DNA of 64,000 nt from Podarcis cretensis. Lineage: Eukaryota. The position numbers and the translations under genes are program-made. The notes under the pieces were generated by a model. The model was not told the origin of the DNA and made no database searches. It saw only the letters and a list, made by a program, of their open reading frames with translations. Below, piece by piece: positions 16,127 to 64,000 of the stretch. The DNA lies in the NCBI GenBank assembly GCA_951804945.1, contig OX638153.1:71486001-71550000 (forward strand), read 5' to 3'. How positions within the stretch are numbered: the first letter of the stretch is position 1; every line of letters begins with the position of its first letter.

Positions 16127-17885
16127 CTTCTTCTTCTTCTTCTTCCTCCAGCTTCCTCCTTCCTTCAGCTGCATGCCCTTTTCCAAGGGAGAAAAAGCTA
16201 ACACCTTTGTGCTGGTACTGCAGTAGAAGTTTCAGATATGACCATAAACACAATAGCTTTAAAATAATAATGATAACAACAATGGGAGGACTATGGAGGA
16301 AACAGAGAAATTCATAGAGGCTTGGGAAGAATGTGATCTGGATTCTCTGGAACAAATTGAGAAAGTACTACATAAATACTCAGGATAAAAGACCTCCTTC
16401 TTATTGTTTTAGCCTTTGAGTTTTGCTGCATAGGAATATGGTTGCAGGTGTTACTGTTGATGCTGCAAATACATGAAATGGTAGGAAAATAACTTTAACA
16501 AAGAACTGGTGCAGAATGCACAGAATGTTACCAGGCAAGGAAATCACCTGCAAGGAAAAAAGTTTTCTGGGTTGATATCTCTCCCATTCCCCCCCCCCCC
16601 CGTGTTTGTCAACTTGAACTAAATAAGGTAATTTATTTTTTGTGCTGCCAGGTAGATGCACCTATATGCACACTTTTAAACGGGCATGCAATTGTTCAAG
16701 TCCTTATCCAAATGCATTCTAAAGGAAGTGATTCATCTGTTAATCATTAACCTGGTAATACATAAAGCAAGATGACACAAGTTCCAGGGCCATAGCCTCA
16801 GAGGCCAGGGGTTGCTATGAGGCTTTAGAGCCCTTCCTGAATTTTCAGCATTTTATTATTTCATTTGATTAAAGTTCATCTTTAGCCCCTGTACTTCATT
16901 CTTGAACAACCATGCATGTTTTCCTTTATATGCCCGTAAGTAAACTGTGGCCCCAACTTCCTCTGTCCCACCTAACTGGTTTGCAAAAGGAGACAAGCAT
17001 TTGAAACTTTTTTGGTTATGAAGTTATACGTTGAACTTAAATTAATTTGCTTAATTTGTCTGTATTTAGGCTTCCTGGGTAGCCTTAAGGTCCATTTAAT
17101 TTGTCAGCGGTCTTGCAAAGCTCCAAAATGCATTAACTTCAAAACAATTTGGCTCTGTTGTTCATAGGTTTTCTGCTCAGCATAGTTACATGCTCAATAT
17201 ACGTAATATGCTCAAGCACCACAACTCAGTGATCTTTAGCAATTCATCAGATACCTATTCTTACAGTTACTTTAGGGGAAGGATGGTCTGCTTGAAGGAA
17301 ATGAGAATGCGCTGTATGCCTAACACCTCTGTGTCTTTCTAGGACGTGATTGTTGGCAGCCTGATCTCAGCCATATTAACTGCTCTGGCTTATCCAACTT
17401 GGGACCTCCTTGATCACCTGATGCTGACCAGCCCCTGGTGCCCCATGTTCTGCATCGTTGTCCCCCTCATCTTATGCTACAACTACCCCAAACTGGATTA
17501 CTATAGCCCTACTAGGGCAGACACAACCACTATTCTGGGAGCTGGAGCTGGAGCAATTACAGGGTTCTGGATAAACAACCACTACGTTTCAAATGTTTCG
17601 GCTGAAGAAGCGACACACAGCATCCCTTCGGTCACTGGCGAAATGCTCTTGCTGGTTCTTGCACAGTTTTTGGTGGGAATTGCTGTACTGCTGATTATAC
17701 GGCAGATCATCAAAAGCCTGGCTCTTAAATCACTGTGTTCTTGGTACAAGGTTTCTATTAATGACATTGAAGCTATGCAGCAAATAGAAATTGAAGTGCC
17801 CTATAAATTTATAACCTATTCTACCATCGGCCTGAGTGCTACGGTGCTTGTGCCATTGCTGCATAAATTATTGAGCTTAAACTGA
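10519..17885 (+). CDS. SGPP2: Sphingosine-1-phosphate phosphatase 2, 3' part (exons 10519-10698, 11772-11861, 17343-17885); 5' exons not found, presumably upstream of the window
   Basis: Spliced translation VVMYIGQVSKDLLKWPRP..EYGMPSTHAMA..SRIYTGMHTVL|DV..YYSPTRADTTTILG..EIEVPYKF has the PAP2 motifs and matches vertebrate SGPP2. Junctions are AG/GT, phase 0. Gene lies next to FARSB as in other vertebrates. Confidence 0.95.
11772..11861 (+). CDS. SGPP2: SGPP2 internal exon (90 nt; exon 4)
   Basis: ttacag|TACCCA...GTTTTG|gtaagg; YPLELGLLGAFLFSTLVCLSRIYTGMHTVL (SRxxxxxH motif). Confidence 0.95.
13548..13798 (-). mobile_element. tRNA-derived SINE (Squam-type) with (TTC)n tail
   Basis: Reverse complement of the family at 15834-16147. 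Confidence 0.8.
14508..14867 (-). mobile_element. Sauria SINE
   Basis: Reverse complement of the 6734-7095 family. Confidence 0.9.
15085..15134. repeat. (TTTC)n microsatellite
   Basis: Seen directly. Confidence 0.9.
15834..16147 (+). mobile_element. tRNA-derived SINE (Squam-type) with expanded (TTC)n tail
   Basis: A box TGGTGTAGTGG, B-box-like GGTTCGTGTCT, TTC tail 16072-16147. Confidence 0.8.
17343..17885 (+). CDS. SGPP2: SGPP2 last coding exon
   Basis: ttctag|GACGTG...AACTGA; ORF 17346-17885 matches the SGPP2 C-terminal transmembrane region. Confidence 0.95.
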   Translation, partial: DVIVGSLISAILTALAYPTWDLLDHLMLTSPWCPMFCIVVPLILCYNYPKLDYYSPTRADTTTILGAGAGAITGFWINNHYVSNVSAEEATHSIPSVTGEMLLLVLAQFLVGIAVLLIIRQIIKSLALKSLCSWYKVSINDIEAMQQIEIEVPYKFITYSTIGLSATVLVPLLHKLLSLN

Positions 17886-21628: not shown

Positions 21629-24071
21629 GACTTCCGGGTTGGCGCCTCCGGTAATGGCGGAATTCCTCTGATCGGGAGGAATTTGCCCCGTGGGAATCTG
21701 GGTCTGGCCGCCATGGCGAAGGCGGAGACCCGTAAAAAATCGCAGGCAGGAGAAGCCTGTGAACATGGGATTTGGCAGGCACCTTTTGCGCCTCCCCTAC
21801 TCGCGGGGAAACCCAGTTTCGGGGGTCCAGAGCGACGTGGGGTGAGCGGCGCGGTGCTTTGAATTGCCTGCTTCTTCCACGGAGCGAAGCCGCATAGCTG
21901 TTGCTGGAGAGCGCTGACTTTTTCCTGTGGACAATTTGATTCTAAAGTAACTACCCGTGAGTAGAGCTGAAGCAGAAGAATTGGATTTCTAAACGTTTAA
22001 TTTGGTATCGTAACGGGGAGGTTCAATAAAGGAAGTCCGCCTTCCCCTTTTGTAAATAGACTGAAGCAATGAGGCTGCAAGCTGAAGTCTTGGAAAGCCT
22101 ATTGTAAAGGACTAAATTTCCATTGGTAAAGAATATTAACCCCCCCCCTTGGAGGCAGGAGAAGAGGGGGGGGGAGTTGTGAACTGAATAAGCCTGCGGG
22201 AGAGAGCGAAGAGAGTTAAAATACCGCCGCTCAGACCCTGGAAACGGGCTGCTAGCAGGAATGACGTTTTTTGGAACGTTCACTGACAGCGATTGTCCGT
22301 TGACAGCTAGCTAATAAGAGAAATACATTGTTTCCACTGTCTCCGTCTGCTTTTAAAAAGGAGTAAAAGTAATTGAAAATTGAAACTTCATTGCTTGAGC
22401 TGTGTTTAAAAAAAGGACATTATGGACTAACTTAAATAGAAACTGTTTCCCTCTAGAGGAAGCCTTTGAAACTGTTACAAGAGCTGGGCTGAGGGAATTT
22501 CCAGCTGCAAGATAAAAAACTGTGAGACTTTGGGACTGACCTTGAATCGGTTAAGTGTTATGGTTAATGGAAAGGAAAAAACTGACCAGTCAATTCTTGA
22601 AAAAACATTAAGGTTTGGGAGGACTTGGCAGCAATCTAGGAGAGCCTCAACATCAGGCCCCCCTGCTTCTTCTACTACTGCTTTTGTACCAGCATATTCA
22701 AAATCAAGAGGAATGTTGATAGAAGAGGCCTTAGCGGTTGCATTAAATAAGATAAATGATTCACTGGAACAGCTTAACAAGAAAGTAGACGTGACAAATG
22801 CGAAAGTGGAAGCTGCAACTATTAAAATCAATTTAAATACAGAAAGTATAAATAATTTGGGACAAAAGGTGAATATCAATACAGAAACCATCCAGAAATT
22901 GATACAGGAATCTACTTTGACATGGCAGACTGCAGAGGAAGCTAGGGAGAAAGCTGTTGCTGCTGAACGTAATGTAACACAATTGGAGAGAGAGAGAGTC
23001 CCAGCCTTACAGAGGCAACTGGATGACCATAAGTCGATGCTTGCTATGATTGAGCTCAAAGAAAAACAAACGAATTTGAGGATCAGAGCCCTGCCTGAAT
23101 TGGAGAAGGAAAGTATGATAGATTTCCTCACACAGGAATTTGCTGATTTTTGGGACTTGGACTTGGGTCAAGAAGAGATTAAAACTGTGAGGGCCTTCAG
23201 ACTTGGAAGAGGAGGGAAAAAAGAGAAGAACAGAATAAGAGACTGTTGGCACTACCTGAAGAACCTAGAAGTACAACAGCCAAGAGTGGAAATTTTTAAA
23301 GACGCCCCGAAATACCTTTTGGATCTTAGGTTCAACTACAGAGATTTGGCTGCCTTGCTGAGAAGGAATAAAATCATCTTCAGGTGGGAGTTTCCCCAAG
23401 GTCTACTCTTCAGCTTCAAAGGAAGGAAAATAAAAATAAGATCAGTAGACGACAAAGTAAAGTTTTTGTATAAATACAAAGAAGATCTGCAGAAGGGACT
23501 TGGAAAAGAGCTAAGAGCATCGGACAGAAGATCACCAGGTTGATGGACTATATGAAACTGGCGGAAATGACTGGCAGAATCCGAGACCAGGGAGAAGAGT
23601 CGGTGGAAGAAGACTGGAAAAAGTTTAAAGACTATTTATAGAAATATTGTAAAATTAATGAATGTTAGAGAAATGTTGGAATGAAGTTATATGGCTTTAG
23701 TAGAAATGTTACAAGGAATTAAGTATAAATAGATTATTAGAGTATTAGGGAAAAATAAGGTTAGAATATGTTAAGATAATTATAGGATAGAAAACAGAGG
23801 AAGATGGAAAGGAATTGCTGAAACAATCAACAGAAGTGGAATACAAAAAGGGAGGTGTGAGGAGGTCGTTGAAACAAGTAAATGAAAGATATGACAAAGA
23901 AATTGTATGATGTGTGTTAAAGTGTTTTTGTTTTGTTTAGTTTAGTTTATGGTGTTAGTGCTGTGTAATGTTTTTATATTGTATTGTGTTGTGTGTTTTT
24001 TCTTGTCTTTTTTCTTTTTTCTTTCTTTTTTTGTAGTGTTTAAAAGTAATAAACATTGGTGTTTTTTTTAA
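21629..24071 (+). mobile_element. Internally deleted L1-clade element (5'UTR, ORF1 22530-23543, ORF2 C-terminal remnant, 3'UTR)
   Basis: CpG-rich 5' end GACTTCCGG..ATGGCGG; L1 ORF1-like protein (coiled coil, NLRIRALPE, FRWEFP); AATAAA 24048; 17-bp TSD GAAATCTCCCATTACTG. Confidence 0.88.
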
Positions 24072-25074: not shown

Positions 25075-52543
<27,469 letters not shown>

Positions 52544-56125: not shown

Positions 56126-57900
56126 TACTCCCCCCTGCCCCGCAGTACTGCTGCAATTCTAAACACATTTACTAGGGAATCTACTTGAACTCAGCAACAG
56201 TTTTCTGAGTAAGCCTGTTGAGGAGTGCCCTGAAAACATAAAGTAGGATTGCCATTTTTTGGCTTTAGATTTCACTGTTATCTGCCCCAGTCCTAAAGGA
56301 GCGATGGTGAAATTGCGGTCAGTCCCCCCCAATTCTGTTGCACCATAAGCTCACAATTTATGTGGGGGTTACACTCCAGGGGTCACGCCTAAAGCCATAA
56401 TCACAAAAAAGTAAAAACACATTGGGTTCAATGGCATGTGGAATTGCCAAGGTGTTTTTTTCCAATGGATGCCTGCCCCGTTTCTGCACCCCCTTTTAAA
56501 AAAAAACAAAACATTTTTTGCCAAGTGTGTTAAGCTGAATGCACACAAGTTAAATGCATGTAAGTTGGGGGTTACTGTATTTCAGTTCCCAACATGTAAG
56601 AGAAATGTAGTCCAGTTATATCTGGAAGACCATAGGTTCCCCAGCGACCTAGAGAGATCTGCGTTGGACTGCACATGTCAGATTACTGTAGGAACTGGAC
56701 ACATAATGAATATATTGAGTCTGGATATCATTACCACATTGCAGAAACTTCTGTAGAGGCAGAGGTGTTCGTCTGGTGCAGCAAACACAACCAGGTGACA
56801 TTGTAACTCAATTTATTATGTCATAATAAGCTTCTGTGGACTCCAGTCCACTCCATCAGTTACATCTGATGGACTCCAGTCCATGAACACGTCTGCTATA
56901 ATCAATTTCTTAAGTCTTTAAGGTGCCACAATATTTTGTTATTGATTTGCATTCTATTGCTTTCAATTTGATGCACATATAAATTTGCATTCCCACATAC
57001 ATTCTGGCACTTGATGCAAAAAGACATTTTTAGAGCATAACAAGACAAGAATTGGGTTTTTTAAAAAATGCACAAACTAGATTCCCCCCAGATTCCACGT
57101 CTACTAACCCCACATAAGGGAAGGTGCAGAGGAGAAGTCAGGAGTCAAAATGGGGAAGAAGCAAATGTAATTCCCTACCCTGGCTGTGGACAGTTTGTGG
57201 ATCAGTAGCAGAGGGGAAGTGTGTGAGCATGAGTCCTTGCGTAAGTGACAATGAGTGGAAGCAGGAAGAACCCAACGTAGGTCATCATGCAAAGCATTTA
57301 AGCAAGTAAGCTGAATCGTGCAGATGAAGATTGTTTAAGGTATACTGAGTTGCTACTGATAAAATTAGTCAAGGATCAAGATAAAGAAGTTTTTTGTTTC
57401 AATTTTGGAAGTGTAAATACATAGTTTCAATGCTACGTATGTATATTTCTTTTTAGAATGTTCACAAAGGAAAATGCAACTAACTTGCAAAACCTCATGT
57501 CTTCCCTAATCTCCTATTAACCCAAAGGGAGGGAAGTCAAGATAACTAAATCAGGAGAATGGGAATTCCATCAGTAGGCAAACTGAGCCAACTTGTAATA
57601 TCACCTGGAATCCGTTGCTATGCAGACACTATGGCTAGCCTTCATGAACTTATATATGGATTTATTCTCCTCAACTGTTTGTGTACAGGGGAATACCCAC
57701 TTACGTGAGGGTTCCGTTACTGGCTACCACCCACGTCAGTGGGATGAGTGTATGTGCCATCTAGTCTGCCTCCAAACAGCCCCCTTTGGGTGCCACAAAT
57801 GGCACATGTCAGCAGTCGAGCGCATTCTGATCATGCATGAGTGCAGAGGAGCCTGTATATGGGTGCCAACTTGAATAAAATATTGGGTGGAGGCCAAATA

Positions 57901-58462
57901 ATTGAAAGTGAAATACTTTATTGTCACTTGTACAACTTGTATACAGTGAGATTACACAAGCACACACCCCCTCAGCTCTCTTAGTCTTAATTCCCTTGTT
58001 TACTGACGCACACCCACTAAACCCGAAAGTCAGTTGCCCTGTTGTTATCTTTTCATTCAGCAGCCTAACAGCCCATGGATAGAAGCTGTTCTTTACCCTG
58101 TTGGTGCGACTAATCATGCCTCTATAACTTATGTCTGAGGGCAGGAGATCAAGAAATTGCCAGCCAGGATGTGACTCATCCCTGAGAATTTTCCTCACTC
58201 TCCCGAGGCAACGTTCTTCTGCTATTTCATCCAGCAGATTCACGGGACAGCCCATAATATCTTGTGCTGTATACACCACCCTCTGTAGGCAGTTCCTATC
58301 AGTTGATGACAAACCAGCGTACCACACCATGATGCAGTATGATGCACTTTCTTTTGTTGACCAGTAGAAGGAGATAATCAAATGTTGATTGACATCATTC
58401 TTTCACAATACTCTGAGGAGTTGGAGTCTCTGTTGGGCTTTCTTAACCACCTGGGTTGTTAT
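57901..58462 (-). mobile_element. Rex1/Babar-type LINE 3' fragment
   Basis: FY..ES..SYCIMVWYAG....DR..LQRVV.TAQ.I.G..LLPS...YR...RT.R.KNSFYP.AVRLLN, typical of the Rex1 C-terminus. Confidence 0.8.
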
Positions 58463-58498: not shown

Positions 58499-59303
58499 AG
58501 TATTTATTAAATAAGCTCCGCTCTGCATAATCAATCACATGATGGGGCACACCTGCACTATTTGAATAGCAATGCCCATCAACTTTGGGGTGGCCCAGCC
58601 TCTTCAACTATTTTATTGGGGGGGGGGACCTTGGCCCCAGGAGTTGGCTCCTATGATATGGTTTTATACAAGGTCAATCAATATATATTCTAAATTGAGG
58701 GTGAAATTTGCACCTGAACCTTGTCAAATTTAAAATTGTCCCCAAGACCCACGTCACTGGTCAGCATTAACACCAGGCCTCCTAAGCCCAGCTCAAATGA
58801 CCAGTCAGTGCTCAGAGGTCCAGGAGAACCGATCTGGTCACCCCACCACCTTTCTATTCTGTGGTCATCCTCAGGAATGACAAAGGGCAAATCCTCACCA
58901 TACTTTCAAAGCACAGTCAACAGACATTTAAAGCACTTGACTCCCCCCTCTTAAGACGCTTGGAAACTGTAATTCCCCCCATCGCAGGATTACAATTCCC
59001 AGGATTCTTTGGGTGGGGGAGAAGCCATGTTTAAATGTATGTTGTGAATATGCCCTTTCAAGGAGGGTTCCTTGCAACAGCCGGGGGGCTTCACACAAAC
59101 AAAACACTTTTCTCTTTTCTGCAGCTGTAATCGATGCCCCTGAAGCAAATTGCATTTGCAGACAAATTATTGGATCTGTGAGCTAAGCGACGGCTTATTG
59201 CATGGGGGAGCCAGAAAAGAGCGCAGGAGAGGGAGAGCTGCGCCCATTGTTGGGATGAAATGAAAAACACTTTTCAGTTACAAATGATAGCAATGGATAA
59301 ACA

Positions 59304-59358
<55 letters not shown>
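59304..59358. repeat. (CTT)n microsatellite upstream of MOGAT1
   Basis: Seen directly. Confidence 0.9.
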
Positions 59359-59359
<1 letters not shown>

Positions 59360-59529
59360 TTCTTATTTTAAGGCCTAAAAGGGATTACTGGGACGCTAAT
59401 TGCCTCGAAAGCAGCAGGGCTTTCCTTGCTTACAATAAAGACTTCAGGGAAGATACGTTTCGAATGAATCATGTGGCAGTGTGAAACAGATCGGAGATCT
59501 AAGAAAGCCCTGCCAACTTCGTTTGTCCA

Positions 59530-60140
59530 TGTTGTGCCGCGTATGCCCTCTCCCCTTCCCCGGCCACAGGCTCCCCCTCCCCACGAGCAACACCGCCTCC
59601 GAGGGGCTCCGTTGGGGCCGCCGCCACGTTCCGCGACCGGCCCAAGGAAGCAGCGCTCTCCTTGATCCCGGCCGGCAGCCAGGGCGGATCCTTGCAGCTT
59701 AGGCGCCGGGGAAGGCGCGGACCGAGGCGCAAAGCTCTCGTCGAGGTCTCCAACTCCCTTGGCTCCAGGGATCGTGCCGGCGGCAGGGCCCCGCCTCGGG
59801 ATCTCCAAACTTGGAAGGGGCGATGGGCTCTCTCCACTGGCCCGGCGCAGCCCGGCCCGCGAGGAGGACCCACCCCGGGGGAGGCGAGAAGCCGCCCTCA
59901 CCGTTGCCCTTTGGGCGCCTTCTGGCGTAAAGCCTCTTCGGCGGCGCGCCATGAAGGTCGAGTTCGCCCCGCTCAACATCCCCCTGGCGAGGAGGCTGCA
60001 GACGGCCGCCGTGTTTCAATGGGTCTTCTCGTTCCTGCTGCTAGGTAAGCGCGTCTGCGCCCCGTCTAGGTGCCCGATTGTCGCCTAGATCGCTTGGACG
60101 TAAACAGAAATTGCAGTAAACGAATGTGTTCGCGCCGCAG
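59530..60140 (+). promoter_or_regulatory. CpG island over the MOGAT1 promoter and exon 1
   Basis: High GC and CpG density around the ATG. Confidence 0.7.
59951..60044 (+). CDS. MOGAT1: Monoacylglycerol O-acyltransferase 1, exon 1 (rest of gene downstream of window)
   Basis: gcgcgccATGAAG..CTA G|gtaagc; MKVEFAPLNIPLARRLQTAAVFQWVFSFLLL matches the MOGAT1 N-terminus; lies next to FARSB as in other vertebrates. Confidence 0.92.
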
Positions 60141-60189
60141 GCTAGTGAAAAGTTTGCTTTTCTGAGAGTTAAGCCTGATTGGAGCTGGG

Positions 60190-60302
60190 AATTGTCGAGT
60201 TGGTAGAGATCACGAGGGTCATCCCCCTATAATGAAGGAATCTCATTGCCCAAGTGGGCCTCGAACCCACGACCTCATACTGTACCGACTGAGCTATCCC
60301 AG
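60190..60302 (-). mobile_element. tRNA-Lys-headed, CR1-tailed SINE remnant (related tails at about 49760-49872, 51750-51835, 25530-25590)
   Basis: GGGATAGCTCAGTCGGTAC..GGGTTCGAGGCCCACTTGGGCA head plus CR1-like 3' end. Confidence 0.55.
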
Positions 60303-61405
60303 CTGTCGAAGGGTATGCATATACGATCGGGCTACAATGGAATTCTGTGCAGGCAGATCAGTAAGTTTTACTTTGGAGTAAACATGCATAGGATGGGGCA
60401 GGGTTCGAGCTCATGCACGGTGCAAGTTGACTCGCAAGTAAGTCTCACTAAGCTGAGGTTCAGTTCCAAGCAGCTATGCTGTAAGCCTGCTGCCTTACTA
60501 AGGAGTAAGTCGCACTGAAACAAAGTGGGATTTAGGAAACCAGAGCAGAGTCTGGCTGTTGGCTTGCGGTTCTAAACGCTTTTGCTAGGAAATAAGCCCC
60601 TCCTCGCTTGATGTGGCTTACTCCACTCCAGAGTAAGGCAGCAAGCCAGTGCATACGTCTTTGTGACGAAATCCCCATTTAAAGCAGTGGGGCTTGCTTC
60701 AGTGTAAAAGTGCTTTAAGCTCAGACTGCACCATCTAGAAACAGGCAAGATGCGTTCAGTGTCCCACGTGGGGATTTGGAAAACTGCCTACTGGAACTTT
60801 ATACATTTGCGATGAGCTTTGCGCGCTCTCGCAGAAAGGTTGTGATGATGTGATGGCTCTAGCATTCTAAGAGAGCAATTCTATGCAGCAGAAGCTGGAG
60901 GAAAGCAGTGTTAAGTGCTACCCCACAAGTCATGTGACAGAGCTGAATAGGTTCAGGCTCCAATTTAAGTCCCTCCTCTCTGGTCCCACACCCAGAATGC
61001 CCCTTTTTGGAAGTTACATTTGGTCTCACTTCAACTGGCTGAGCTGGGATGAGAAAATTATGCAGGGCCATCTTTAGCATATATGGTGCCATGGTGCAAA
61101 TTTTCCACCCAGCGCCCCCCAAAGTTGTTGAGCTTTTTTTAAGGAGTAGTAGGGAGTCTCGCACTGCTAAAAACATACCACCGATCGCGCCATGGAAAGC
61201 AGCACGCAGATTGTGCCAGTTAAAATAATGTATCAGAACGCCACCACCAGGGAAAACAGCATCACCGGACAGAAGGGGTGGCGATGCACACTTTTGCCCC
61301 CTCCCAAAGAGAAATCAGGAGTGCGCCATCCTCAGTGGCGTACTAAGGTCAGGTGGTGCCATTTAGGTGATTGATGGGTTAAGCAAATAAATTTTGATTA
61401 CAGTA

Positions 61406-61631
61406 CAGTGGTACCTCAGGTTAAGTACTTAATTCGTTATGGAGGTCTGTACTTAACCTGAAACTGTACTTAACCCGAAGCACCACTTTAGCTAATGGGG
61501 CCTCCTGCTGTTGCCATGCTGCCGGAGCACAATTTCTGTTCTCATCCTGAAGCAAAGTTCTTAATCCGAGGTACTATTTCTGGGTTAGTGGAGTCTGTAA
61601 CCTGAAGTGTCTGTAACACCAGGTACCACTG
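61406..61631. mobile_element. Tigger/mariner-type MITE (opposite orientation to the 6387 copy)
   Basis: Same TIRs, TA TSD. Confidence 0.85.
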
Positions 61632-61775
61632 TATTTGTATACTGTATTACCAAAAGATCATGATCTAGGATTCCATGATCAGCAGAGATGTCTTTTGGAG
61701 ATATTTAAAGGACTATCTATACCCAGAAGTAAAAACTGCTAGAGTTTTTACTAGTGACACATTTCCAAATTATTA

Positions 61776-62330
61776 CCGGTAATTTTGGATCCCGGGGACC
61801 AATGGGCGGGTCGGGGCCGGTTGGCCACAAGTGGGCAGGCAGAGTAGCTTCATTTAGTCAAGCGGGTCGGTTGCGAGAAGAAGCCTCGCGCCCCTTTGGC
61901 TCCGCAGGTTCGGGTTGACGTGTCCATCATGCCTTGTACCAGATCTCAGTCTGAAAGCCAGAGCACCATCAAATTCCCAAAGCGGAAATCGATTAGGAGA
62001 CGTCACAAACCTCTAGAGAATGAGGAGGCTTTGAAACTAGACACAAGCCCACTGACAGTTTCACCCCAGAAGCCAGTCTTGCCTCTCAGCCCGTGTAAAC
62101 GTCTTGGAGATGACAATCTCTGCAATGTCACCCAGTTGCTGCCTTGCTCCCCAAGTAAGCAGGGTAAAAAAAAGAATAGCTTTCCATCCACTTCTCCCAA
62201 GGGCCGGGCTTTACTTTTCAGCGAGCGTTCAACCCCCAAATCTCCAACTAAGGGCAGCAGTTTGGTTCCGCCTCCCTTTCATGGTGGTCAAGAAACCCCT
62301 AACACTTCACAGCAGCATCGCCACCCAAGG
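61776..62330 (+). pseudogene. CDC6: Partial CDC6 retrocopy (5' leader plus about 134 N-terminal codons; ATG 61929, frame open to 62549) in MOGAT1 intron 1
   Basis: MPCTRSQ..TIKFPKRK..LPLSPCKRLGDDNLCN..PCSPSKQGKKKN..KGRALLF..KSPTK resembles vertebrate CDC6 N-terminus; contiguous; flanked by ATTATTA direct repeats (61769-61775, 62331-62337). Confidence 0.88.
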
Positions 62331-62785
62331 ATTATTAATTTCGGAGGGTCACTTTCTCATAGCAATAAACTATTTCCCTCCACCCACCCAGCAAAAAATC
62401 ACAGTTCTTTTCAGATGGTAACTTACACTGCTGCTGCCACCCGCTGCTTTAGTAAACAAGATGAAACCCTGCTGAGCACAACAGGACAACTGCCATGGTG
62501 CTCAGCCTCCCTTAAGTACGATACTTTCTGGAAATGGCCCTGGAGGTAGGAGCAGAGCCACTGAAGCACAGGGTTCCCAACCCCCACCTCCCTGAGATGC
62601 TCCAAAAGGATACCATGATACTGAAAACTGCCAGTCAGTCAAGAGGAGCAAGCAGGGTCACATTCCACCTATCTTTCTCCCAACAACTGTCATCAACCAT
62701 GGCTACTAAGGCAGGTTCAGTGGTATGGCCAGCCATGAAGCCAGACTAGAATATATCCAAGTTGCCTCCAAGCAAGCCTGAACCT

Positions 62786-63092
62786 ATCAAACCTATCCAT
62801 TCTTAAGGAAATCAGCCCTGAGTGCTCACTGGAAGGACAGATCCTGAAGCTGAGGCTCCAATACTTTGGCCCCCTCATGAGAAGAGAAGACTCTCTGGAA
62901 AAGACCCTGATGTTGGGAAAGATGGAGGGCACAAGAAGAAGGGGACGACAGAGGACGAGATGGTTGGACAGTGTTCTCGAAGCTACCAGCATGAGTTTGA
63001 CCAGGAGGCAGTGGAAGACAGAAGTGCCTGGCGTGCTCTGGTCCATGGGGTCACGAAGAGTCGGACACGACTAAACGACTAAACAACAACAA
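62786..63092 (+). mobile_element. RTE BovB LINE 3' fragment
   Basis: BovB 3' end, (CAA)n tail, TSD CAAGC(C/A)TGAACCT. Confidence 0.9.
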
Positions 63093-64000
63093 CAAGCATG
63101 AACCTGGACTGTTGCCACCCTTTCTAGTGCTTTGCCCCCAAAGGGGCTATTTGCCAGTGTAATAGTTGTCTAACTACTAAGCCCAGGGAGATCTTCTTAA
63201 GGCAGGGACACACCACTGTATTCAGAGCTACAATACCTCTCAGATAAAAAGGAACCTGTGAAATTCAGAGCTACCCAAAATCCTGTCTCGCGGGCAGATG
63301 CAAGAGTGCTGATTATCATTGTGCTGATGGTTATTCTTTTTCAAATGGAACTACTGCACCCCACCCTGGGATCCCTTGTGAAGAAGGGTAGGCTGAAAAT
63401 ATTTCAAGCAAATAGCTAAATGAGGAAAGCCCTGTTAAGTTTTACAGCCTAAAACCGGTTAACAATACAAAAGATTACAACTGTTTTTCTTATAATCTGC
63501 TTCTGAAGTCAGAGCAGTGAGTCATTTTGATGGGTTCTGTTGAAAAGGGGCTTTCGTTGTACTCCTTTTGCTGCCTGCTAGAAACATTTTTGTTTACCCG
63601 GATATTGAGAATGCTGGTGTGTTCTTAGTTTATTGCTGCTTCCAATTCTTTGGATGTTTTAATTGTTTTCACTAAAAATTTCATTTTATTCTTCTTTCTG
63701 TAAACTGCCTTGGTTTTTTTTCGGGGAGGCGGCAGTTACAATCACTTGGTGTATAAATTTCACAAAATAAATAAAAATAAATAATATTTTTAAAAACAAA
63801 CAAACTCGGAGATAGCCACATTTCACTTGCAAACATATCTTCACCCACATCCTAAGCAGCTCATCCAGGTGACTCTTGCCATATGATTGCCCCTTAAGTA
63901 ATTTATAACTGCCTGACTTTAAGACTCTTCTGTGACATACTAGAAACAGTACTGGATGTACTGGAATTATTTAGCTAGTATATGTGTGTGTGTAGGATGG

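Follow-up and report, generated by a model that had tools for sequence, protein, structure and literature searches.

Tailless retropseudogenes are described as RNA-derived, 3'-truncated copies that lack an oligo(A) tail and are flanked by target duplications (PMC5322556, PMC2912911). Internal priming has been described for them, their flanking duplications measure 8-35 nt, and the green anole is the one non-mammal lineage in which Noll et al. (2015) name them as detected (PMC5322556). The CDC6 copy studied here is built in the same way: it is derived from RNA, is truncated at the 3' end without oligo(A), is flanked by a duplication that is probably 15 bp long and, like the published examples (PMC5322556), ends just before an A-rich internal stretch. 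It departs from them, as far as those accounts go, in that the TT/WAAAAWW consensus is unmatched, the priming homology is a single nucleotide, the left duplication is split by 6 bases, and the copied transcript is a multi-exon mRNA of a lacertid. With classical L1 processed pseudogenes it shares precise intron loss, a dispersed site, a duplication of ~15 bp and neutral decay; unlike them it keeps its 5' end, lacks the 3' end together with the poly(A) tail that marks a classical poly(A)-primed L1 retrocopy, and has no TT/AAAA site. When compared with the N-terminus of vertebrate CDC6 as described (PMC4738361, PMC6211026, PMC4584310), the copy retains the S54/S74/S105-type CDK sites, the Cy motif and residues 1-24, but it carries R56C and E82K, has neither an AAA+ nor a winged-helix domain, and has gained 72 repeat-derived residues.

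In structure, the locus belongs with the tailless processed pseudogenes, which are already on record from the green anole. We read it, with a probability of about 0.9, as a neutral CDC6 retropseudogene that was most likely made by a LINE reverse transcriptase through internal priming of an mRNA and is now likely decaying without selection. A neutral pseudogene was one of two possibilities raised in an initial annotation of this DNA, and it is the one that the data favor. The other, a stable cyclin-CDK decoy with its own promoter, fares poorly against frameshifts in relatives, a neutral ratio of nonsynonymous to synonymous changes (N:S), a Cy degron that is kept, and E2F sites that were not copied.

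The copy lies in the window, by which we mean the whole 64,000-nucleotide stretch of DNA that was analyzed, within intron 1 of a gene that we take to be MOGAT1, a name that comes from its N-terminus and from synteny. The features needed to follow the argument are these:

59951-60044, plus strand: first coding exon of the MOGAT1-like host gene, 94 nt, with a GT donor at 60045
61045-63832, no strand assigned: host repeat, 5 copies found, ends approximate
61406-61631, no strand assigned: nested 226-bp MITE with terminal inverted repeats and a TA duplication, absent from 4 paralogues, with more copies nearby
61769-61789, plus strand: left target-site copy, a 15-bp target split by 6 bases at 61776-61781 (TA-CCGG-TA)
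61790-61920, plus strand: copied CDC6 exon 1/promoter-proximal leader, 131 nt, containing a GC box and a single CCAAT; 14 differences separate it from the parent
61921-62106, plus strand: copied CDC6 exon 2, 186 nt, with the ATG at 61929 and the D-box change CGT>TGT at 62094
62107-62330, plus strand: copied CDC6 exon 3, with the KEN change GAG>AAG at 62172 that creates an A8 run, and the Cy motif at codons 93-97
62331-62345, plus strand: right target-site copy, its first A common to the parental mRNA (1-nt microhomology)
62331-62549, plus strand: read-through extension, 72 codons into the host repeat, ended by TAG
62457-62757, minus strand: decayed non-LTR retrotransposon reverse-transcriptase fragment (tblastn of RVT_1 proteins, E 2e-16)
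62786-63093, plus strand: nested Bov-B/Sauria-type 3' fragment that has a (CAA)n end and a 12-bp duplication with one mismatch, absent from paralogues

Intron 1 of the host gene is ~15 kb long and extends past the window end, and the next exon matches Pfam DAGAT at E 8.6e-15. The proposed placement of the copy in intron 1 holds for a gene with a DAGAT-matching exon, presumably MOGAT1.

The stop-free frame from the ATG at 61929 to 62549 encodes 206 aa, and its codons 1-134 are CDC6. Human CDC6 chains were matched at E 7.5e-22, and among the 69 proteins scored from 273 candidates in a protein search, Podarcis CDC6 was the best at 90% identity; together with the frame listing, these matches bear out the initial description of a 206-aa frame with ~134 uninterrupted CDC6 codons. 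A DNA search of the genome gave four matches, comprising the window copy on C5 and three pieces of the parent on C13 (the last 131 nt of exon 1, the 186 nt of exon 2, and 225 of the 261 nt of exon 3). The cDNA part is 541 bp (61790-62330) and consists of spliced CDC6 exons 1-3. Both parental introns, of 1980 bp and 997 bp with GT-AG ends, are absent, and both exon joins are exact (2/2), which establishes the locus as a retrocopy, as had been proposed. Intron removal and dispersal from C13 to C5, with a duplication and an empty site, are the properties of a processed pseudogene. The 3' end falls 36 nt before the exon 3 donor, and there the cDNA directly abuts target DNA; the copy is 3'-truncated and tailless, and the reported lack of a poly(A) tail and of the AAA+ part is correct. 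With 38 differences in 542 bases (7% divergence) from its parent, it can no longer be called young. A search of the genome with full-length CDC6 found only the parental exons and the window copy, with no further CDC6 piece. Pfam gave no match for the 206-aa product, Rfam gave none in 59000-64000, and a search for proteins of similar length yielded 12 candidates of which 0 passed, so that no annotated short CDC6 product was seen, which is weak evidence.

The copy had been drawn as a 555-bp insert at 61776-62330 between ATTATTA repeats. Those flanks are present (61769-61775 and 62331-62337), but the cDNA starts only at 61790, and the 14 nt ahead of it (61776-61789), rather than being part of the insert, are mostly target DNA. 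The empty site could be read in 4/4 paralogous repeats, where the 15 target bases occur once and uninterrupted (one paralogue with one mismatch). The right target copy matches it at 14/15 bases, and the two pieces of the left copy, interrupted by 6 bases, together rebuild exactly 15 contiguous target bases with zero target bases lost. On this alignment the target duplication is probably 15 bp and not 7 bp, with a perfect part of only 7 bp (15 bp when the 6-bp interruption and one mismatch are allowed). The TA-CCGG-TA pattern at 61776-61781 resembles what we take to be a DNA-transposon excision footprint. No indel falls in 61769-61789 among the records listed for junction-spanning contigs from three relatives, coded B, C and E. 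A 5' inversion of upstream promoter sequence was considered as the source of the 14 extra bases and was rejected; it fits worse by eye than the exact target match.

The parental mRNA turns A-rich where the cDNA ends, with only 1 nt common to the target. The insertion site reads AA/ATTATTA, which matches neither TT/AAAA nor TT/WAAAAWW; the L1 target consensus is a tendency only, and the mismatch does not exclude L1. The Bov-B Tn-TA signature is described as a duplication that starts with A after T, with TTT ~10 nt upstream (PMC13295347), and here the duplication starts with A, the preceding base is A, and TTT lies 5-7 nt upstream. Because the site agrees with neither consensus, that of L1/tailless copies or that of Bov-B, we assign the mobilizing enzyme to neither L1 nor Bov-B. 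The same misfit, the 1-nt priming homology and the extra 5' bases copied from the target neighborhood speak for RNA- or cDNA-templated break repair, in which end-joining with locally templated bases would have left a 7-bp duplication and 10 bases copied from the downstream flank. We consider this route unlikely, though far from negligible: the left pieces rebuild exactly 15 contiguous target bases, a length within the modal 14-16 bp of L1 duplications (PMC2912911), and no target base was lost. It would alter the mechanism only, and the verdict of nonfunction would stay.

The flank into which the frame continues had been taken for plain intron DNA and is in fact a multicopy repeat with an antisense reverse-transcriptase remnant. 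When 62325-62800 was used as a query, 40 of 126 candidates were scored as matches. Four reach 88-93% identity, and their similarity also covers sequence upstream of the insert and runs out to 63832. The CDC6 copy thus sits inside a five-copy low-copy repeat (88-93% identical), with copies on four contigs. A chimeric insertion of CDC6 with a transposable element was rejected, since in the paralogues the repeat extends to either side of the site. Pfam on six frames of the host repeat found nothing beyond one spurious match at 0.066. The window repeat and its paralogues (L016-L019) have a composite structure with ragged ends, in which no terminal repeats or family were identified. The nested MITE at 61406-61631 is presumably Tc1/mariner-like, and the (CAA)n tail at 62786-63093 is a Bov-B/Sauria-type feature (PMC13295347, table 4).

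In the four paralogues, the frame that forms the extension is open for 138, 100, 38 and 34 codons. Relative to all 4, the window has a 5-bp insertion near 62513-62517, which ends the frame at 72 codons; the window frame has also taken a 3-bp deletion. Of random sites in the window, 4.7% stay open for 72 codons. The AATAAA at 62364 precedes the stop codon, as the initial annotation had it, with the next AATAAA at 63766, and 3/4 paralogues also have it. Because the paralogues carry them, the open extension and the AATAAA are features inherited from the repeat. The 5-bp insertion (62513-62517) is missing in contigs of relatives E and H, which may be collapsed paralogues, and the C-terminus of the frame may differ between species.

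CDC6 has APC motifs at 56-59 and 81-83, a Cy motif at 93-100 that is required for cyclin F binding and CDC6 turnover (PMC4738361), and a PIP-box degradation route via CRL4-Cdt2 (PMC4584310). The parental lizard gene reads RKRL and KEN, and the copy reads CKRL and KKN (CGT>TGT at 62094; GAG>AAG at 62172), so that both degron changes are specific to the copy; SPCK, SPSK, SPTK and the RxL motif RALLF are all kept. On these points the earlier reading was right. The R56C change falls on a CpG. Among 75 intact CDC6 orthologues examined, 73 had the motif found, and CKRL stands at the D-box in 8 of these 73, while KEN is kept in 72, which makes E82K a rare change. The CKRL carriers are eight full-length reptile and bird CDC6 proteins (P0003, P0009, P0047, P0049, P0057, P0059, P0069 and P0070), and the D-box arginine has repeatedly been lost in apparently intact CDC6 genes; P0029 has GEN in place of KEN.

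It would be too much to say that all known N-terminal degrons are lost: the Cy motif (cyclin F degron) is retained and residues 1-24, within which we assume the PIP box to lie, are unchanged. Because the retained Cy motif is an SCF-cyclin F degron, the 206-aa peptide, if made, would not be stable despite the loss of the D-box and KEN. The copied region is probably disordered; a CDC6 peptide structure is known (2cci).

Relatives offered a view of the copy beyond a single genome. Fourteen non-RNA runs of 8 coded organisms hold 30-55% of the sequence words, and 7 of the 14 were compared, one each for organisms B-H, with organism A and duplicate runs left out. The copy is present in 7/7 relatives, whose contigs cross a copy-specific junction. 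Frame retention in these orthologues had been put forward as a check on function, and what they hold is frameshifts and one stop. Organism C has lost 10 nt at codon 22 and 1 nt at codon 82, and organism F has lost 8 nt at codon 51. Organism G has gained 2 nt at codon 79, lost 1 nt at codon 123 and acquired a stop at S101, and its P75S and R93W remove the S74-P75 CDK site and the Cy arginine R93. In organism H, a record of 177 nt covers a span of 175 nt (net +2, site not listed); no intact parent could have this frameshift, and we infer that it belongs to the copy. There are thus 7 disabling events in 4/7 organisms, none shared, with frameshifts seen directly in three of the four and assigned in this way in H; all contigs are above depth 5. 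Two, possibly three, of the events fall in the A8 run made by the KEN change. Among the records listed, organisms B and E show no indel, with stops not excluded, and the copy in organism D is uncovered at ~62136-62273. Contigs of D, F, G and H show CKRL directly, and those of F and G show KKN as well; we infer CKRL for B, C and E and KKN for B, E and H. At the degron sites, the parental contigs listed in one of two comparison sets all have the RKRL and KEN letters. At codon 111 (62260), the copy and the parent of the same genome both have Ser, and the other six lacertid CDC6 proteins have Asn; the parental gene of organism D has the same letter as the copy. The shared Ser111 would have either arisen twice in parallel or been passed from copy to parent by gene conversion.

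A raw comparison of copy and parent gives an omega of 0.28 (12 synonymous and 12 nonsynonymous changes; Fisher p 0.004). Since the constrained branch of the parent contributes to this value, we rejected it as a sign of selection. Changes were instead polarized by hand from the relatives' contigs and six lacertid proteins and corrected for transition bias, and the count includes N111S, a parallel change that the pairwise comparison does not show. The copy lineage leading to this genome then has 10 nonsynonymous and 6-7 synonymous changes (one synonymous change being ambiguous), and other branches (D, F, G and one H record, with B, C and E left out) have 11 and 4 among the changes listed, for a pooled 21 nonsynonymous to 10-11 synonymous. 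With a neutral synonymous share of 0.26-0.29 under 6 mutation models, omega is 0.59-0.69 for this lineage (p 0.13-0.32) and 0.68-0.79 pooled (p 0.20-0.32 versus neutrality, with low power). The proposed dN/dS check for constraint thus returns an N:S indistinguishable from neutral; the ratio appears to be what would be expected without selection, with point estimates of omega still below 1 and power low. The coding part has changed at 16/402 positions, at a pace not below that of the older host repeat with its 25/783 private changes (p 0.50). The pattern expected of a functional retrogene, a frame conserved in orthologues with omega below 1, is not seen here, and the loss of coding constraint that characterizes a processed pseudogene is, at low power.

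If indels occur at the host repeat's ratios of 0.12-0.2, the frame survives a terminal branch of ~6 substitutions with P 0.34-0.49, in keeping with breaks in about half of the lineages. The whole lineage to this genome would stay open with P 0.06-0.15, a low figure, but one obtained for a copy that was chosen for its open frame.

The leader does contain the promoter elements attributed to it, CCAAT at 61799, GGGCGG at 61804 and TTTGGC at 61895, but TTTGGC is not the TTTSSCGC E2F site, and all 3 such sites in the 1 kb of parental promoter scanned fall outside the copied part. Its CpG count is 12, compared with 14 in the parent. No RNA run was among those listed as containing the stretch. One presumed-RNA run (X15, 1 of 6 such rows) has a single contig of 2089 nt, which carries the parental letters and runs on into exon 3 of the parent; it weighs neither way, since contigs drop rare variants and the organism may lack the copy. 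The leader also includes, at 61889-61908, a pyrimidine-rich, acceptor-like AG that is present in parental exon 1 as well.

The open frame here and the lack of listed indels in B and E could be taken to mean that a degron-less CDC6 N-terminal peptide functions as a cyclin-CDK decoy, either in this genome or transiently on the stem with later loss in several lineages. The CKRL of D, F, G and H and the KKN of F and G place both degron changes early, residues 1-24 equal those of the parent, and most leader CpGs persist. In simulations, both degrons changed with P 0.03-0.07 over 16 substitutions and with P ~0.01 when the CDK sites, RxL and frame also stayed intact; if both changes were among ~5 early ones, P falls to 0.002-0.007, a post hoc figure on a stem length that is a guess. 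This early double change, at ~0.5% by chance and post hoc, is the one residual oddity and the sole result against the neutral reading. Against a decoy stand at least 7 independent disabling events in 4/7 relatives, the neutral N:S, the loss in organism G of a CDK site and the Cy arginine, the missing E2F site, and a first AATAAA that precedes the stop, with none following until 63766. Such a peptide would still be degraded, Cy being described as an SCF-cyclin F degron (PMC4738361) and CDC6 as having a PIP degron (PMC4584310). We therefore hold a functional decoy to be very improbable. The same low odds apply to its more specific form, a brief recruitment in ancestral wall lizards of a truncated, APC/C-resistant cyclin-CDK docking peptide, in which the degrons would have been removed early by selection for stability or against competing for APC/C-Cdh1, and the translated gene would persist where the frame is open and be lost elsewhere. 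If the decoy were real, it would be a natural APC/C-resistant cell-cycle decoy derived from a truncated mRNA.

The host gene and the copy are on the same strand, and the acceptor-like sequence could let the AG at 61906-61907 take the MOGAT1 exon 1 donor, giving a spliced product that stops after 34 codons. A cryptic or poison exon of this kind is nevertheless hardly to be expected, since that acceptor is out of frame with CDC6 and the 7 in-frame AGs are weak (pyrimidine fraction 0.35-0.71). An in-frame MOGAT1-CDC6 fusion was rejected, as the best acceptor leads to a stop. A genomic fragment or misassembly can be dismissed given the exact removal of two introns, the 7% divergence and the junction-spanning contigs in independent organisms.

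For the neutral tailless retropseudogene, we propose that a germline CDC6 transcript started inside the CpG-rich promoter and that a LINE reverse transcriptase used the A-rich stretch near the end of exon 3 as its priming site. A 15-bp staggered duplication would then have sealed the copy, with the 6 bases entering the left target copy at integration or as an early transposon footprint. The insertion may have taken place on the stem of a Podarcis-like clade, ~15-30 million years ago. That placement is suggested because the copy has S40, as do four Podarcis records (Lacerta and Zootoca have T), and Q128, as do Lacerta and Zootoca (the Podarcis records have P). A 4% divergence at 0.0013 per site per million years, a rate quoted in PMC13295347, gives ~30 million years, an upper figure given CpG decay. 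R56C, by CpG decay, and E82K would have drifted in early, and the A8 run created by E82K would have slipped later in some lineages. The frame may still be open here by chance, aided by an in-frame landing in a stop-poor stretch of the host repeat.

No lizard CDC6 retrocopy came up in the literature searched, and the supplements of PMC5322556 may list lizard mRNA cases. The locus adds a well-documented, mRNA-derived tailless retrocopy from a lizard with a known empty site, one that as a neutral copy carries little weight, and it supports the published suggestion of relaxed retroposition machinery in some lizards. The insertion, together with its lineage-specific breaks, could be scored as a presence/absence marker in this lizard clade. 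It also illustrates how an open frame that has lost two motifs may give an impression of selection in a single genome that does not hold up across relatives.

The neighborhood of the host gene has some features of its own. FARSB-type exons lie upstream on the minus strand (50319-51206), and a long plus-strand exon at 17343-17885 resembles, we assume, SGPP2, with no Pfam confirmation. The FARSB-type exons stand head-to-head with the host gene at a CpG island (~59500-60100), the SGPP2-like exon lying in the same window. A 357-codon stop-free frame with a coiled-coil stretch at 22470-23543 (plus strand), which has no significant Pfam match, resembles a LINE ORF1. Remnants of LINE ORF 3' sequence occur at 57809-58402 (minus strand) and 42236-42793 (plus strand), the latter resembling the Bov-B fragment at 62786-63093.
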